From Candidatus Freyarchaeum deiterrae (GTDB lineage Archaea > Asgardarchaeota > Jordiarchaeia > Jordiarchaeales > Jordiarchaeaceae), in contig CP147778.1 of the NCBI GenBank assembly GCA_037305845.1, positions 1,888,001-1,952,000 of the forward strand: a stretch of 64,000 nucleotides of DNA, given 5' to 3'. The notes below the pieces were generated by a model. That model saw only the letters and a list, made by a program, of their open reading frames with translations. It made no database searches and was not told the DNA's origin. This document shows, piece after piece, positions 21-33,314 of the stretch (position 1 is the stretch's first letter; each line of letters opens with the position of its first letter). The position numbers and the translations under genes are program-made.

Positions 21-36
21 AGAAACTTATAAAAAG
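21..36 (+). promoter_or_regulatory. BRE/TATA promoter of tRNA-Leu
   Basis: AGAAAC followed by TTATAAAA about 40 nt upstream of the tRNA 5' end. Confidence 0.55.
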
Positions 37-73: not shown

Positions 74-267
74 GCAGAGATATCCCAGTCTGGTCAATGT
101 ATACGACTAAAGGAGTAGGACTGAGGTTACTCGGGTTCGAACCACTCGAGAATCAGAGCTCCTATGGCGCAGAAACTCTCTAGCCTTCTAGGGGTTTACG
201 TAGGCCTTCGGGAGTTCAATCAGTAGCAGAGTTCCTGTTGCTGGAATATATCTCCCTCTCTGCACCA
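74..267 (+). tRNA. tRNA-Leu(GAG) with four introns (98-110, 127-158, ~173-203, 220-249); CCA encoded
   Basis: Spliced 88-nt product GCAGAGATATCCCAGTCTGGTCAA/AGGAGTAGGACTGAGG/CTCCTATGGCGCAG/GCCTTCGGGAGTTCAA/ATCTCCCTCTCTGCACCA. Acceptor GCAGAGA:TCTCTGC, anticodon stem TAGGA:TCCTA, variable arm GGC:GCC, T stem GGGAG:CTCCC. BHB-type junctions; intron 3 is relaxed and its boundary ambiguous. Confidence 0.93.
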
Positions 268-372
268 TTTACATCTACTTTTTCAATGAAAAGGAGCGGA
301 ACGTGTAAAATAAGATTGTTGCAAAATCATATAGAGCATTGTTCAATATGGAAATCAAGGAGGTTTCTAGTC

Positions 373-648
373 ATGTTATTTTTAGTGATAAGCAGCCCAT
401 ATTCCTCAAAACCTGAAGATGTCAAAAACGCAAGATTGGAATTTAGGTCTTGGATTAAAGATTTGAAGTCAAAGAGCAAAGTGACCTGCTTCTATCCCAA
501 AGTAGGAAGGGGCTCCGTTGTAATTTTCGATGTCTCCTCAAATGATGAACTTCATAAACTGCTGACCCACTGGCTAAACATTGTACCCGTAAGTTTCGAC
601 ATTTACCCTTTGGCAACCCCATCGGAGGCGGAGGAGCTTTTAAAATAG
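373..648 (+). CDS. Small DUF3303/muconolactone-isomerase-like protein (91 aa)
   Basis: ATG at 373 (MLFLVIS...GRGSVVIFDVSSNDELHKLL...FDIYPL). The ORF-track extension to 238 overlaps the tRNA and is rejected. Confidence 0.65.
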   Translation: MLFLVISSPYSSKPEDVKNARLEFRSWIKDLKSKSKVTCFYPKVGRGSVVIFDVSSNDELHKLLTHWLNIVPVSFDIYPLATPSEAEELLK

Positions 649-681
649 GAATAGATAACATGGGATTGCTCGCACTATCGC

Positions 682-695
682 CGCGCGTACGCGCG
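682..695. repeat. Perfect 14-bp GC-rich palindrome CGCGCGTACGCGCG
   Basis: Self reverse-complementary sequence in an AT-rich intergenic region. Confidence 0.8.
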
Positions 696-903
696 CAGAA
701 CCATGAGCCAACATTTGACACTCACATCGTTCTTTTGTTCTGTATTTTGACAAAGTGCCGATACTTTCTTTTTGAGTTAAAAAAAAGCGAGAACGCACAG
801 TATTAAGACTTATAGGTATGTCCCGACTTGCACCGTAAGATGATCCAGAAAGCTCAAGTCCCTAAGACGCACCAGAGCCCTGAGCTTTTACTCAGAATTT
901 GAT

Positions 904-1092
904 TATCCTAGCCTGGTCAAAGTTTAACGACTAAAGGAGCAGGACTGAGGTTACTCAGGTTCGAACAACTCGAGAATCAGAGCTCCTGTGGCGCAGAAAC
1001 TCTCTAGTCCTTTTAGGGGTTTACGTAGGCCTTCACGAGTTCAATCAGTAACAGAATCCCTGTTGCTGGAATACATCTCGTCCTCCGCACCA
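904..1092 (+). tRNA. Second four-intron tRNA-Leu(GAG) copy lacking nt 1-7 (pseudogene or split-tRNA 3' piece); introns 921-934, 951-982, ~997-1028, 1045-1074
   Basis: Colinear with 81-267. Anticodon stem CAGGA:TCCTG, T stem ACGAG:CTCGT, 3' end CCTCCGC-ACCA. The complementary GCGGAGG is not immediately upstream. Confidence 0.8.
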
Positions 1093-1196: not shown

Positions 1197-4100
1197 TTAC
1201 TGTCTTCGTAATAATGTTTCATGTATTCTGGTCAGGGTGTCTGGGTAGAAGACTCTCATGAGAATTAGGACTACTACCAGTAACCCGAATATAATAGTAA
1301 CTATTCTGCTCAGGGTGTCCATGTCAAATTGACCGCTAGCTGCATTTGCTGTGAGCAGTGACAAGATTGGAATGGGTGACGGTGGCGTTGGGGTAACTAC
1401 TTGGACTGTGAAACTTTCATTAAAGCTTCTACCAGCGTTGTCGGTCACATTTAGGGTGATATTTAGATTGCCGAGAGAACTCGGAGTTATCGGAAGCTCC
1501 GCAATCCCCGTATTATTGTTGTAGAATACTGTTGCATCATGGGATTCGCCATTTAAAAACACTGTTAGATTGGTTAAGTTAACCTGTGGAGTACTTGAAG
1601 CGTTGAAAGGTAGATATCTTACCCATATCTGCAAATTAAACGGTATTCCTAGAGTTAATGTTTCGTTAAGTGTAACATCTGGTTCTATTAGTCCCGCTTC
1701 TAATTGGTACACGTTGAATATGTAATAGTTCTGTGCTAGTGCCTGGTTGCCTATCCCCCTTATCATAATGTTATTACTTGAGTTCGTTGTAACTGATGCA
1801 ATGTATTCCCCAATATCTTGGGGGGTGAAATTTACGTTCCAGTTCTGGAAATCGGTTGTGTTTCCTGAATAATTAAACATCGTGCCGTTGGGGTTGATTA
1901 TGGTTACGGTCAAATTACTTGGGTTATCCAGTACATTTGTAATATTTAACGTGACTGATGTGCCCTTATAGGGCACGATGGTTGATGTAACATTCACTTG
2001 GGAGTAGAAGGTTATTGTAGTGTTCATTGTTTCTCCATTAGAAAGTTCTTGTCCTATGCTTGTAGAGTTGAAGGCGTTTTTGAGTATTGTTATCGTCTTG
2101 GTTATCGAATTTGTAAATGCCTCAGTCCAATTATCTGAAAGAAGGGTGCTGTTGAGAAATATTGTGTTAGCAGCGCTTTGGTTCGCTGCTGGATTATAGC
2201 TGACATACTCAGATTCCTGCGATAAGGAAATAGTCGCATTACTATGCGTATATATACTGGTGAATGTAGAGCCCGAGAATGTGGATGTGTTTGTATAAAC
2301 CATTTGAGCATTAATGGATGCGTTTAAACTGGTGCTGTTCCAATCCTGACTGGTTTGGTTCCAAGCCTTAAAAATTAGCGTAGCTACACCTGTGCTACTG
2401 TTGTATCCCACTTGACTGCTGGTGAAGATTTGACTCCAGTAACCTTGAGTACTGTTAACCATAGAGATATCGTTAATATAAAATAATGTATGGTTACTCA
2501 AGCCGTCACTGTAGTTATAGTAAAATAAATTGTAAGTTAGACTGTATTGGATATCCTTACTACTCGCCAGATTAAAGGTAACGATGCTTCCTGAGGCGTT
2601 TTGTATCGGGGTCCAAACAGTATCATTCCATACCCGATTACCGCCAACGAGTTTATTATTAACGGAGATATTGATACCACTCGTATCTGTCGAATTATAA
2701 GATGTAATCTGCATACACTGCCAGTATCTGTGACCGAACGGGTCTCGGACATCCTTCCAGTTCCAATTGCTAGAATTATCAGGGGTGGTCCATATTCCAT
2801 AGCCCTCTGGCGGAGGAATCTCAAATGCACTAGTATGGCTCGCCCAATCATAAAACTGACCGCTACTCGGATCTCCCGTCCAGTTTTTTGTATGAATTAC
2901 TAGGAAGTAATTTCCTTGTGAGAAATGACCTGTAAAGTTAAGAGTAAGCAAATTATAAGTTGAATTTACGTTCTGGTAAGGCACTTCCAAAGCGACACCA
3001 GTAACATTGCTGCTTAAATTATAAGCCCCAATTGATGAATCGAATGTAGCATTCCAAATCTCGGCAGTGAGGTTTTGCGTTAAACCTGTGGTGCGTAGTA
3101 TCAGTATCTGAATTGTGAGATTGTTCGAGTCATCCGGCAATGTGAACCTTTGAGCTTGGCTCACATTTCCAACGGTGTGTGCGAAGCCGTCTGAATTAGT
3201 TACGTTCTCAATAACGTGTAACTGTGAAACCGGAGTTATACTAGTAAAGTTGATGACGGCAAGATACATCCGATCCCCGTTAGGAATGATGACGTTGAAG
3301 CTACCTGTACCCCCTGTAATATTTCCAGTGGTGCTGCCTGCAATATTATAGTTAATATTACCTGTGTTATTAAAGACATCCACTGAGAGCTGATTCAAAG
3401 TCCAATTCGCTGGGAGCTGCAATGTCAATGTATACTGAAGCTTTGTTAAATTCATTATCATCCAGCAATTGAATGCAACTGAACTTTGAGACCAAAGATT
3501 GGTATCATTTATTTGTTCTATATCTGTGAAATTTTTCAGGTTGAGTGCTAATCCTCCGCTATTAGGAGTACATCCCCAAGTATAATATGTAGTATTGTCG
3601 CTTGAAGTACTAGTATTTAATCTTACCAATATGAAATAAGTCTGGCTTGGGTTCAGCTTAATGGTAGTTTCATTAAGTAGAGTAACCCAATTTCCACTGG
3701 CATTAAAACTGCTATTTGAGTACGTTTGACTTAGCAGAATAGCATCTGATGCGTTACTTGGCACCCACATCGAACCAATCAGGGTTCCATTCCTCAGCTC
3801 TACCCTAAAATCTGGAGGAGACGTATTATTATAGCCTATCCATAGTTGAACACCATTAAAGTATGTTGTAACATTTGAGGTGCTAAATGGCATGGCTACA
3901 GAACTGTTCAAGTTATCGTTCCAAGATATATTGAGATTATTTTCTGGCGGCCCGGTGAGATTACCTTCTATAGTATCCGAGGCCGTTTTATTTGTGATTT
4001 GAAACCATGTTACATTGTAATATGCTCCATTTATTTGGATTGTGGGGTCATTTGTAGTGCCTTTCAGTTGAGGGGGATTCATTTTTTGGCCTGCGGTTAG

Positions 4101-4211
4101 TGGAGATGCTACTGGCGTGTTGGTGGTTAATATGAATAGCATAGCGCATAGAAACAATACGCAAAGTACAAGCGCAATAGCCGCCTTTTTTCTGCTCTTC
4201 ATTTCAACCAC
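1197..4211 (-). CDS. Large membrane-anchored cell-surface glycoprotein (1004 aa)
   Basis: N-terminal signal/TM segment, N/T/S-rich beta-type sequence with very many N-x-S/T sequons, Pro-rich linker, C-terminal TM helix and basic tail. Confidence 0.8.
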   Translation of the reverse strand: MVEMKSRKKAAIALVLCVLFLCAMLFILTTNTPVASPLTAGQKMNPPQLKGTTNDPTIQINGAYYNVTWFQITNKTASDTIEGNLTGPPENNLNISWNDNLNSSVAMPFSTSNVTTYFNGVQLWIGYNNTSPPDFRVELRNGTLIGSMWVPSNASDAILLSQTYSNSSFNASGNWVTLLNETTIKLNPSQTYFILVRLNTSTSSDNTTYYTWGCTPNSGGLALNLKNFTDIEQINDTNLWSQSSVAFNCWMIMNLTKLQYTLTLQLPANWTLNQLSVDVFNNTGNINYNIAGSTTGNITGGTGSFNVIIPNGDRMYLAVINFTSITPVSQLHVIENVTNSDGFAHTVGNVSQAQRFTLPDDSNNLTIQILILRTTGLTQNLTAEIWNATFDSSIGAYNLSSNVTGVALEVPYQNVNSTYNLLTLNFTGHFSQGNYFLVIHTKNWTGDPSSGQFYDWASHTSAFEIPPPEGYGIWTTPDNSSNWNWKDVRDPFGHRYWQCMQITSYNSTDTSGINISVNNKLVGGNRVWNDTVWTPIQNASGSIVTFNLASSKDIQYSLTYNLFYYNYSDGLSNHTLFYINDISMVNSTQGYWSQIFTSSQVGYNSSTGVATLIFKAWNQTSQDWNSTSLNASINAQMVYTNTSTFSGSTFTSIYTHSNATISLSQESEYVSYNPAANQSAANTIFLNSTLLSDNWTEAFTNSITKTITILKNAFNSTSIGQELSNGETMNTTITFYSQVNVTSTIVPYKGTSVTLNITNVLDNPSNLTVTIINPNGTMFNYSGNTTDFQNWNVNFTPQDIGEYIASVTTNSSNNIMIRGIGNQALAQNYYIFNVYQLEAGLIEPDVTLNETLTLGIPFNLQIWVRYLPFNASSTPQVNLTNLTVFLNGESHDATVFYNNNTGIAELPITPSSLGNLNITLNVTDNAGRSFNESFTVQVVTPTPPSPIPILSLLTANAASGQFDMDTLSRIVTIIFGLLVVVLILMRVFYPDTLTRIHETLLRRQ

Positions 4212-5496: not shown

Positions 5497-6231
5497 TTAG
5501 TGCGTGAGTCCCGGGAAGTAGTATCTTTCTCCGTGGGCGTAGCTTTCGTCTTTTCTGGTTATACCTTCCTGCTCTAAGGCTTGGAGTGCGTTCTGTGCTC
5601 TGACCTTTGTCCAACCTGATTTTAGCATTACTTCTTCGAGGGTTGTAAATCCGTCTCTGCTCGCTATGCTTAGCACTTCATTTTGGTCTTCGGTGAATTC
5701 TACTGGGAAGAAGCTTATTATTTTCACGCCGGATTTCAGTTCGTGTACTCCGGGTATGAGTTTGTTTTTCTTGAGTATTTTTACTGCGTTTTCTATGTCA
5801 TGGGTTTCCAGTTTCTGGGCGAGTTTTCCGGTGTTTGCTAGTAGGTATGCTTCACTGTAGGTCATTATTCCGCCGTTTTCCTTGCGTTTGAGCATTGCTC
5901 TCTGGTAGAGTAGCATTCCTAGTTTTTCGTGGTCTATTTTTGTCCCTATCCCCATGGTTCCTTTTTTGAGTACTTCTTCTTCCGACATTACGTGGGTTAT
6001 TATCGCTTCTTTCGGTATTCCATATTGTTTTCTTATTCTTTCAACCTCATCTTGAAGCTGGGGACTGGTGGCGATAATGACTCCGTATTTTCTAGCAAGC
6101 TCTTCTAGCTTCTCTTTTGTTTCGGTTGCGGTTTCCAAGTCGTTTCTGATTTCCTCTAGTTTAAACTCAGTGGCCTTTTTTTGTACGTATCTTTTTTTTT
6201 CCATTTTATCGCGTAATTCATGTATTCCCAT
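5497..6231 (-). CDS. vps22/36: ESCRT-II Vps22/Vps36-like EAP30-domain protein
   Basis: N-terminal helix, NGGIMTYSEAY motif, tandem winged helices ending RYYFPGL. Downstream of vps28. Confidence 0.85.
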   Translation of the reverse strand: MGIHELRDKMEKKRYVQKKATEFKLEEIRNDLETATETKEKLEELARKYGVIIATSPQLQDEVERIRKQYGIPKEAIITHVMSEEEVLKKGTMGIGTKIDHEKLGMLLYQRAMLKRKENGGIMTYSEAYLLANTGKLAQKLETHDIENAVKILKKNKLIPGVHELKSGVKIISFFPVEFTEDQNEVLSIASRDGFTTLEEVMLKSGWTKVRAQNALQALEQEGITRKDESYAHGERYYFPGLTH

Positions 6232-6253
6232 TTTTCCGACTCCCTTTATCTAT

Positions 6254-6928
6254 CTATAACTGCCTTAGTCTTTGACGGAAGTCTTTGAACCACCTTACAG
6301 AATCATACTCTATTTTTTTAGCATCTTCCGAATCGATTACTAGATCTGGGGGTTCGTCTTTGAGTTTGTCACGCCAAGCGGTTATTTCCTGATAAACCCA
6401 GTAGTTTTTGTCATGAAGTCCTGTAAAATTTTCTAGGAGAAGTATTACATCGTCCATTATTGGCACTATGTTATCGACCCTAGCATAGTCCCCTAACTGT
6501 ACACAGTCAATTAGAGTAATGAAATTTGATACCAGGTCAGCAGTTTCGGTGGCGAGCTTTGCTGGAGAGAATTTGAGGATTTCTAAAGGTATCTCTTCCT
6601 CCGGCCTCATGGCCGTTTCGTCCAATTTTATAATTCTTAACTTCACCGCTGCATCGGGATAATTCTCTATGATTTTTTCTTTCTCTATAAACTGGGCGAG
6701 GTCAAACCCTCTCTCCTCAAGATTTTTGCGTACCTCGAGAATTTTTTGGATGTACGCTCTCATTTGGAGACTGTAGGTGGCGGCGTCAATTAAACCGCCA
6801 TTGTAATTTTTGCCCAACATATCCAGCGTTGCAATACAAGAATATAGCTCCGCTTCTAATTCCAATTGTTTATCCACGTCACTTTCTGATTGCTTTGCAC
6901 TAGGTTTCGGTTTTTCTGCTATCTTCAT
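6254..6928 (-). CDS. vps28: ESCRT-I Vps28
   Basis: AELYSCIATLDMLGKNY N-terminal motif and NFITLIDCVQL C-terminal bundle typical of Vps28. Confidence 0.85.
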   Translation of the reverse strand: MKIAEKPKPSAKQSESDVDKQLELEAELYSCIATLDMLGKNYNGGLIDAATYSLQMRAYIQKILEVRKNLEERGFDLAQFIEKEKIIENYPDAAVKLRIIKLDETAMRPEEEIPLEILKFSPAKLATETADLVSNFITLIDCVQLGDYARVDNIVPIMDDVILLLENFTGLHDKNYWVYQEITAWRDKLKDEPPDLVIDSEDAKKIEYDSVRWFKDFRQRLRQL

Positions 6929-6956
6929 TTTTTTATCCTCCTGTCCCTTGGACTAC

Positions 6957-7754
6957 TTACTTTGCCTGAAGTTTCTCCAGCTTCTTGTTTACTATGTATA
7001 ATTGTTTCTTATACCTCTTATACAGCTTAGTATAATCAGTTGGGCCTACTTCTCCACCTTCAAACTTCTCTTCCAGTGTTCTGATCAAATCCTCAATAGC
7101 TATCTTTTCACTTTCAACATCCAAAACTTCTCGATATACGGGATCCTCCGGGAGCAGGTCGGATTGCGGATGCTCGTCCGCCGCTTCTGGTACATTGTGA
7201 GCGGATAATCTGCCACGGAGCATTGCTATTTCCTCATCACGCTCTTGAAGCGTGCTTTTAAGTTTCTTAGTTTCACTTTCCATACCCGAAAGTTGCGAGG
7301 ATGCCTCTGAACCAACCTCTTCTCCTTCTTGTGTCTTCTCCTCTTTGTCTACTATTGTTACCGTTACTCTAGGCGCCTCTTTCTCCACTTTAACCCGTCT
7401 TGTGGCTGGGCTTGGAGGTATCCTTGCAAAAGCGCCCTTTAGTGTATTTACTACGTGGTACAAGTGGTACTCTGGTCTCCACTGGTCTAGGATGTTCAAC
7501 TTCACTCTTCCGGTTTCAATGTCTACGTTAGGATGCTCGGTAGGAGAAATCATACGAACTTGAGGGGGGTCAATAGGAAATGTGGGTGGGATTTTGATTT
7601 CCACCTCGAATTTGAGTCCTCTAAATTCGCCTCTACCCGCTATTTCACCTATCCAACGGGTTAGATCGCCTTTAACAGGTTCAAAGCCTCGGGTCCTCTG
7701 ATACATTAATTGAGTTTCCCGTGCAAGAGTTAATTCAAAATTGCTGCTGGACAA
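6957..7754 (-). CDS. vps23: ESCRT-I Vps23/TSG101-like: UEV domain, coiled coil, steadiness box
   Basis: UBC fold (FPIDPPQV...HPNVD..GRVKLNIL..W.P) with the catalytic Cys replaced by Lys. C-terminal AIEDLIRTLEEKFEGGEV...YLKRYK-like steadiness-box helices. Confidence 0.85.
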   Translation of the reverse strand: MSSSNFELTLARETQLMYQRTRGFEPVKGDLTRWIGEIAGRGEFRGLKFEVEIKIPPTFPIDPPQVRMISPTEHPNVDIETGRVKLNILDQWRPEYHLYHVVNTLKGAFARIPPSPATRRVKVEKEAPRVTVTIVDKEEKTQEGEEVGSEASSQLSGMESETKKLKSTLQERDEEIAMLRGRLSAHNVPEAADEHPQSDLLPEDPVYREVLDVESEKIAIEDLIRTLEEKFEGGEVGPTDYTKLYKRYKKQLYIVNKKLEKLQAK

Positions 7755-8039
7755 AGCTTATAACAGCCCCTTTCACTTTTTTCTCTACAAAATATCCCCG
7801 AATATGACATATTAAAACTTTTGATATAGGCATAAAAAACCCCCTTTTTTTCTGTTTTAAACAAATTCCCAAACATTTTTAGTTAATTCAACCCTGAAAC
7901 ATTCTAGAAAAACAGAAAAGATTAAAGCGATTTCATAATAAATATTTTAAATATAACAATTTTGAGAATTAATATCTAGATGCATTGATAAGCATTTACC
8001 AGTTCTTTTAATACAAGGGTTAAATTTGGGTGAATATTA

Positions 8040-9715: not shown

Positions 9716-10231
9716 TTGGATGAAGAACCAAGAGTAATGAAAATTCTGGTAACAGGACCCTATTCCTCTGGAAAAAGTACTGTAGTAAGCAAACTATGCA
9801 AAAACGCTGTAAGCATTGATGCATTACATACAACTGTGGGTTTTGATTTTGGTTCTAGATATGAGGAAGTTAATTTTTTGGATTTGAAAATTTTTGGGAC
9901 ACCAGGCCAGGTGAGATTCAAATTTTTGCAGGAGATTCTGGCTCAGGGTAGTGCAGGTATTTTGCTGGTTGTAGATAGTACAGCTCCTGAAACTCTAGAA
10001 GTGGCAAAGGATGTCCTCATAAGGATGCAGAATGAACTTTCAGGAAGAGTATCCGTAGTGATTCTTGCAAACAAACAGGACTTAGTTGGAGCTCTAAGTC
10101 CAGAAGAAGTCAGAGAAAAATTAGGTGTTTCTAAAGATATTCCAGTGATAGGGACAGTGGCTACAGAAGCCATTGGGCTAAAAGAAGCCATTACAAAATT
10201 AATTAAACTGATGCTAAAAGCAGAAAAATAA
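9716..10231 (+). CDS. Small GTPase (MglA/ATP_bind_1-like)
   Basis: GPYSSGKST, TTVGFDFG, GTPGQ.RF, NKQD. Confidence 0.9.
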   Translation: MDEEPRVMKILVTGPYSSGKSTVVSKLCKNAVSIDALHTTVGFDFGSRYEEVNFLDLKIFGTPGQVRFKFLQEILAQGSAGILLVVDSTAPETLEVAKDVLIRMQNELSGRVSVVILANKQDLVGALSPEEVREKLGVSKDIPVIGTVATEAIGLKEAITKLIKLMLKAEK

Positions 10232-32678: not shown

Positions 32679-33314
32679 TTGGATAGATTAGACAAAAACA
32701 CGCAAGCAAACAAAAAAAACGAGGATGAGTTAGTGGAAACCACAGAAGAAACTCCAACTCCGAGAAAAAAAAGAGCGGAACTAATACCCGGAAACAGAGT
32801 AATCGTATGGAACCCAGAAGAAGGTTCCCAACTCTACGCCGAAAAATTCTACGGGCAGCCCCTAGGCATAAGAAAACCAAAATCTCCCCAATTCACACGC
32901 CCACTTGAACTATCCCTACAGGAAGCTCTATACCTACTTGAAAAAGAAAAAATCGAACTCACAGATGCCGCAGATGGCCACGCAGTAACCAGAGACGAAC
33001 TGGAAAAAAGGGCAGAACAAAACTACATAGACTTCAAAACAAAATATACCGTATATAGAGACCTTCGAGAAAGAGGAAAAATAGTCAGACCAGGACTCAA
33101 ATTCGGAGCAGACTTCTCAATCTACGAACACGGACCGGGAATAGACCACGCCCCACTTATAGTGTCAGTAGTACCCCAAGGCACCCAACTCAGCGCAATA
33201 GAAACAGTAAGAGCAGGACGACTCGCAACAAGCGTCAGAAAAAAATTCGTAGTTGCAACAGTAGGACCGACAGGAGAACCAAGATACTACATGTTCGCAT
33301 GGCATAAACCCTAA
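32679..33314 (+). CDS. endA: tRNA-splicing endonuclease catalytic subunit with crenarchaea-type specificity loop
   Basis: LSLQEALYL, VYRDLRERG.IVRPGLKFGADF..Y, GPGIDHA, RLATSVRKK (Y/H/K triad). FYGQPLGIRKPK loop. Confidence 0.95.
   Translation: MDRLDKNTQANKKNEDELVETTEETPTPRKKRAELIPGNRVIVWNPEEGSQLYAEKFYGQPLGIRKPKSPQFTRPLELSLQEALYLLEKEKIELTDAADGHAVTRDELEKRAEQNYIDFKTKYTVYRDLRERGKIVRPGLKFGADFSIYEHGPGIDHAPLIVSVVPQGTQLSAIETVRAGRLATSVRKKFVVATVGPTGEPRYYMFAWHKP

Follow-up and report, generated by a model that had tools for sequence, protein, structure and literature searches.

A four-intron tRNA-Leu(GAG) gene and its putative relic copy in Candidatus Freyarchaeum deiterrae

Organization of the tRNA-Leu(GAG) locus

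The window, i.e. the whole stretch of DNA analysed here, comprises 64,000 nucleotides of the Candidatus Freyarchaeum deiterrae genome (contig CP147778.1, positions 1,888,001 to 1,952,000). This genome is referred to as G000, and all other G- and L-numbers denote compared genomes and loci. Near its start, the window holds a tRNA-Leu(GAG) gene interrupted by four introns (copy 1), which is followed by a short stretch of DNA with a small open reading frame and by a second, truncated version of the same gene (copy 2). The features of the locus are compiled in Table 1.

Table 1 Features of the tRNA-Leu(GAG) locus and the EndA gene in the window.
Feature	Position	Strand	Remarks
BRE/TATA-like archaeal promoter element (inferred)	21..34	+	Conserved in the alignment at the orthologous loci L002, L080, L081, L083
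tRNA-Leu(GAG) gene, copy 1	74..267	+	194 nt (88 nt exon, 106 nt intron); CCA encoded
Copy 1 exons	74-97, 111-126, 159-172, 204-219, 250-267	+	
Intron 1, 13 nt	98..110	+	D-loop 21/22; central helix GGTC:GACT (4/4); exon helix 3 bp, intron helix 1 bp
Intron 2, 32 nt	127..158	+	Canonical 37/38; central helix CTGA:TCAG (4/4); exon helix 6 bp
Intron 3, 31 nt	173..203	+	Variable loop 47d/47e; relaxed; central helix GCGC:ACGT (3/4); intron helix 2 bp, exon helix 1 bp
Intron 4, 30 nt	220..249	+	T-loop 58/59; strict hBHBh'; central helix GTTC:GAAT (4/4); outer helices 9 bp and 4 bp
Insert between the copies, about 610 bp	268..881	.	Not found in relatives searched; no integrase
DUF3303-family ORF, 91 aa	373..648	+	80-89% identity to Anaerolineae and Desulfobacterota proteins
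tRNA-Leu(GAG) relic, copy 2 (putative)	882..1092	+	Without positions 1-12; no acceptor stem possible
Fifth-intron relic (putative), D-loop 17/17a	887..913	+	882-907 compared with L081/L083
Copy 2 introns (the same four)	921-934, 951-982, 997-1028, 1045-1074	+	
EndA catalytic (alpha) subunit	32679..33314	+	Best PDB match 3P1Z, E 8e-43; 33 kb from the tRNA

The four-intron gene as such is already known. It corresponds to tRNA 24, Leu(GAG), at 1888074-1888267 of SRVP_Freyarchaeota_curated_circular in Supplementary Data 4 of Valentin-Alvarado et al. 2024 (PMC11291895), where introns are given at 1888127-1888158, 1888173-1888203 and 1888220-1888249, with three introns called by tRNAscan and four by R2DT. 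The boundaries of introns 2 to 4 are identical to ours to the base, and both the exact gene and its intron count have thus been in print since 2024. The published table counts the fourth intron, located in the D-loop, without coordinates, reports an Infernal score of 58.7 with three introns removed and the D intron left in, and includes neither a BHB analysis nor copy 2. It also lists four introns in the Arg(TCT) and Ile2(CAT) genes of the same genome. What appears to be new are the coordinates of the D-loop intron, the decayed copy 2, and a five-intron orthologue together with a relic of the fifth intron in copy 2.

Removal of the four introns from copy 1 yields an 88-nt sequence with the 3' end ACCA, which ARAGORN identifies as tRNA-Leu(GAG) with a score of 115.0 without any intron modelling, above the score of 110 for the spliced orthologues. 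The product folds into a full cloverleaf with a long variable arm and the anticodon GAG, and every stem is paired. If the D intron or the variable-arm intron is retained, the score drops to 72.1 or 91.8, respectively, and the tRNA is mis-called; the unspliced gene was detected neither by ARAGORN nor by Rfam searches in gathering and E-value modes. The spliced sequence contains A73, the discriminator and an identity base of archaeal tRNA-Leu, as well as A47c and G47d. The latter two belong to the identity bases by which LeuRS recognizes archaeal tRNA-Leu (PMC4005665).

A genome-wide pattern search for Leu(GAG) genes gave none other than copy 2, and according to a rough count over long ORFs, CTT and CTC together account for about one third of the Leu codons. 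Six independent Logan assemblies contain copy 1 and its duplicate with zero differences; we can therefore rule out an assembly artefact as the source of the locus.

Introns 1, 2 and 4 each display a 4-bp central helix between two 3-nt bulges, accompanied by at least one outer helix. Intron 3 falls outside the canonical motif and, with three of four pairs, belongs to the relaxed class only. Based on 20,000 shuffles of each intron, the chance of obtaining such helices is 0.021, 0.014, 0.15 (3/4 or better) and 0.030 for introns 1 to 4, which corresponds to a joint chance of about 1e-6 and places the four helices far above the shuffled controls. In ViennaRNA predictions the BHB fold is not favoured for introns 2 to 4, and forcing it costs 3.2, 7.4 and 3.1 kcal/mol, respectively. 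Both G000 copies carry a derived T-to-C change at 47b, by which one pair in the helix of intron 3 is lost and not compensated.

A preliminary description of this DNA had read the gene as a four-intron tRNA-Leu(GAG) spliced by EndA. This reading held on every test run, splicing itself being a prediction, and we could reproduce the coordinates, the lengths of 13, 32, 31 and 30 nt, the central helices, the bulges and the four insertion positions (the variable-loop site being 47d/47e), as well as the strict motif of intron 4, the relaxed 3/4 helix of intron 3 and the 88-nt product. Its wording that all four arms are interrupted is correct if these are the D arm, the anticodon arm, the variable arm and the T arm; no intron interrupts the acceptor stem. 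Copy 2 had been overlooked.

Related tRNA-Leu genes and the integrity of copy 1

Related genes support the positions of the introns. An intron-less Asgard Leu(GAG) orthologue from another family (G016, L022) is 88 nt long and colinear with spliced copy 1, all four introns being absent from G016. The congener G002 precisely lacks intron 2, and the variable-arm and T introns are absent from L023, L024 and L026. The orthologues in G001, G003 and G005 possess four introns as well, with the D-loop intron at 22/23 instead of 21/22. In the congeneric loci L002-L005 this D-loop intron is a different one of 28-29 nt, located one base off the site of intron 1, of which a 14-nt homologue is found in L081. 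This offset may reflect either independent gain or sliding.

The variable-arm intron, which the preliminary description considered unusual, turned out to recur and had already been called by tRNAscan in 2024. An intron at the same site, directly following A47c-G47d, was observed in 16/16 related Leu genes scored, with central helices ranging from 4/4 to 1/4; this number stands for recurrence and not for frequency, since part of the genes came from a pattern search permitting such an insert. The carriers belong to three Asgard families and have the anticodons GAG, TAG or CAG; the neighbouring Leu(TAG) of G000 is among them.

Of the 88 exon sites of copy 1, 16 differ from the orthologues. Ten of these differences form five fully compensated pairs (3:70, 7:66, 27:43, 49:65 and 50:64), in which both sides changed and Watson-Crick pairing was kept throughout; no pair is broken. 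These two-sided changes therefore indicate selection for the fold of the spliced tRNA. Copy 1 is not alone in its fast exon change, since several stem pairs have changed in the neighbouring Leu(TAG) gene as well.

In a metagenome scan, the exact junction pattern of G000 intron 2 gave 0 matches and a looser pattern retrieved six orthologues; two pattern matches on viral contigs were rejected, as they are not tRNAs. The absence of a Leu(GAG) match from G004 is due to its contig, which stops about 320 bp upstream of Leu(TAG), in the region expected to hold Leu(GAG). In G000 the tRNA-Leu(TAG) gene is located about 240 bp upstream in divergent orientation (L021 9665-9836 (-), genome 1887836-1887665) and carries introns in the D-loop, variable arm and T-loop; this tRNA is already published, and a RIO1 kinase gene comes after it. 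Outside the window, at C1:1631535 (+), we noted what appears to be the beginning of an intron-rich tRNA-Leu(CAG) gene, which is similar to L076 of G004; Leu(CAG) is not listed in the published Freyarchaeia tRNA table.

Two other readings of copy 1 have to be weighed. The gene might be a decaying pseudogene, or the variable-arm insert might never be removed, in which case tRNA-Leu(UAG) would read the Leu codons CUU and CUC. The weak intron-3 motif, with its incomplete central helix, outer helices of 2 and 1 bp and the highest forcing cost, speaks for this reading, and so does the number of exon sites at which copy 1 departs from its orthologues. However, the majority of these differences are the compensated pairs described above, the promoter is intact, the six assemblies are free of variation, and a 3/4 helix at this intron also exists in three other species; we consider this reading very unlikely. 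The second reading concerns the cut itself: if intron 3 were excised 3-5 nt off register, the variable loop would be GTAG, as in relatives, instead of GCAG. The terminal repeats of the intron allow such a shift, and both products score 115.0 in ARAGORN; the preliminary description had called this boundary ambiguous. The geometry is not equivalent, however, because the shifted registers retain a central helix of only 2/4 or 1/4 compared to 3/4. Moreover, the homologous site shows a 4/4 helix in G002, L081 and the family-f2 genes, and the loop GCAG occurs uninterrupted in L024. The modelled geometry thus decides for GCAG, and we regard a shifted cut as even less probable than a decayed gene. Considering the evidence as a whole, we conclude with high confidence from the sequence comparisons that window 74-267 is a functional gene and the only complete tRNA-Leu(GAG) gene of Candidatus Freyarchaeum deiterrae.

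Copy 2 and the DNA inserted between the copies

In copy 2, positions 18-76 are retained along with each of the four BHB motifs; its exons are close to the ancestral sequence, whereas those of copy 1 have diverged. Spliced as a four-intron or as a five-intron gene, it gave no tRNA call. An explanation for its leader is provided by the closest relatives found, the metagenome contigs L081 and L083, whose genes harbour an extra 26-nt intron with a 4/4 central helix at 17/17a. Window 882-907 matches this intron and its flank at 22/26 positions without gaps, a value reached by 0/5000 random 300-mers of the genome. Because of this match, copy 2 is likely to derive from a five-intron gene, the working copy being without that intron. 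L081 holds one complete five-intron Leu(GAG) (Ga0315314_1000043, 7688-7907 (-)), which splices to 88 nt with an ARAGORN score of 112.2; the L083 orthologue is cut off by the contig end. We rejected a fifth intron at 7/8 with GCGGAGG of the DUF3303 ORF as 5' exon, as this 7-mer is coding and the L081 intron accounts for the leader.

As a side observation, the T-loop intron of the L081 Leu(GAG) gene is located at 59/60 and is nearer to T-loop introns of Leu(TAG) genes (z 3.8-5.8) than to those of its own orthologues (z <=2.9), these shuffle z-scores being rough. A T-arm exchange between neighbouring Leu genes is possible in view of this similarity.

The sequence between the copies appears foreign. 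The ORF that it contains gave no match when used as a query against 40 relatives, and it is likely to be a horizontally acquired gene of bacterial type. The orthologous flanks are distributed over both copies, the upstream one adjoining copy 1 and the downstream one adjoining copy 2. Copy 2 would be a non-functional remnant of an ancestral gene with five introns that underwent duplication or tRNA-targeted insertion, and the same event would have brought the DUF3303 gene.

The alternative that copy 2 encodes the 3' part of a tRNA assembled by trans-splicing from split genes could draw on its intact positions 18-76 and four BHB motifs with their near-orthologous sequence. Genome searches, however, gave no separate 5' half whose trailer could pair with the leader of copy 2; decay of a fifth intron accounts for this leader, and copy 2 has no promoter of its own in register. 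Of the readings dismissed here we consider this the least probable. For the duplicate taken as a relic, two origins compete. A mobile element with a four-intron allele of its own might have integrated near the 5' end of a resident five-intron gene, leaving copy 2 behind, and might since have decayed to about 610 bp. The split of the orthologous flanks around a foreign insert points to such an event, as do the ancestral exons of copy 2 next to the diverged ones of copy 1. An intact gene and a partial direct repeat around foreign DNA are also what is seen in tRNA-integrated elements of the SSV or pNOB8 type, and a gene with a fragment around an insert has been described for Caldiarchaeum subterraneum (PMC3293823). 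In that organism foreign DNA likewise lies between a complete tRNA-Thr gene and a partial copy that differs from it in intron content; the insert there measures 1.8 kb, with a 5' fragment and a putative recombinase, compared to a 3' part with all introns and a DUF3303 cargo here. However, neither a whole or split integrase gene nor an integrase remnant was found in the insert (the genome's sole tyrosine-integrase-family match lies at 3.475 Mb), and at about 210 bp the repeat would make a long att site, that of SSV1 being 44 bp. Besides, no tRNA was detected beside bacterial DUF3303 homologues, no viral copy of this variable/T-arm pattern was found, and the altered stem pairs of the neighbouring Leu(TAG) gene lessen the weight of the exon divergence. 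We regard this origin as quite possible, although somewhat short of probable. The competing origin is a local duplication, after which copy 1 would have lost an intron, copy 2 would have decayed at its 5' end and a gene would have been inserted separately. That the copy 1 allele replaced a five-intron tRNA-Leu(GAG) when foreign DNA with a bacterial-type gene inserted at the tRNA is accordingly a tentative proposal, about which we are rather more doubtful than hopeful.

Splicing machinery and implications

The EndA alpha subunit encoded in the window is closest to Aeropyrum EndA, and the region of the catalytic Tyr/His/Lys motif and a CSL-like loop align. For Asgard EndA, the CSL loop permits the cleavage of relaxed motifs (PMC5829648). 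The genome contains two PF01974 (EndA) genes, the second paralogue being located at genome 1733162-1733422, as well as RtcB, so that a broad-specificity endonuclease and a ligase are predicted for the host. We propose that copy 1 is transcribed as one precursor, in which EndA would make eight cuts, each after the second bulge base, before ligation by RtcB. End trimming by RNase P and a 3' nuclease would follow, and finally leucylation. Removal of intron 3 would be needed because it rebuilds the four-base loop G-C-A47c-G47d read by archaeal LeuRS; owing to its weak motif, this intron would also be the likeliest slow step.

Comparable gene structures are known from the Thermoproteales (Sugahara 2008, in PMC4033280), whose multi-intron tRNAs likewise contain non-canonical BHB introns and are processed by an (alpha-beta)2 EndA with a specificity loop. 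The maximum reported there is three introns per gene according to the review (PMC4033280), compared to four here, and cross-isotype intron copying, which is common in Thermoproteales, is rare in Asgard archaea. A 2026 bioRxiv preprint (10.64898/2026.10.13.758758) gives about 2.2 introns per tRNA gene, and up to five, for Freyrarchaeaceae, Jordiarchaeaceae and Atabeyarchaeaceae; D-arm introns are described there as most often missed by tRNAscan, variable-region insertions as having weaker motifs, and none of the newly identified Asgard intervening sequences as shown to be spliced. In its main text, this locus, the LeuRS identity site and a duplicate are not discussed.

Other genes in the window, at 5497-7754 (-) and 9716-10231 (+), include ESCRT-like genes (EAP30/Vps36 family and E2/UEV with a weak Vps23 core match) and an Arf/Ras-like small GTPase gene, as expected for Asgard archaea. 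At 1197-4211 (-), a 1004-aa protein rich in Asn, Thr and Ser, with hydrophobic ends and no Pfam match, is encoded, which is probably a surface glycoprotein.

The four-intron finding itself changes nothing, since the gene, three boundaries and the intron count are in print. Copy 1 could serve as a compact test substrate for the predicted Asgard EndA, because a single 194-nt RNA holds strict, one-sided and mismatched BHB motifs. The relic with its fifth intron, the D-loop introns at 21/22 and 22/23 and the possible T-arm exchange bear on intron gain and loss. If the proposed replacement is true, it would represent a dated and precise loss of a tRNA intron through DNA recombination, and it would mean that even a five-intron gene is not safe from integration.
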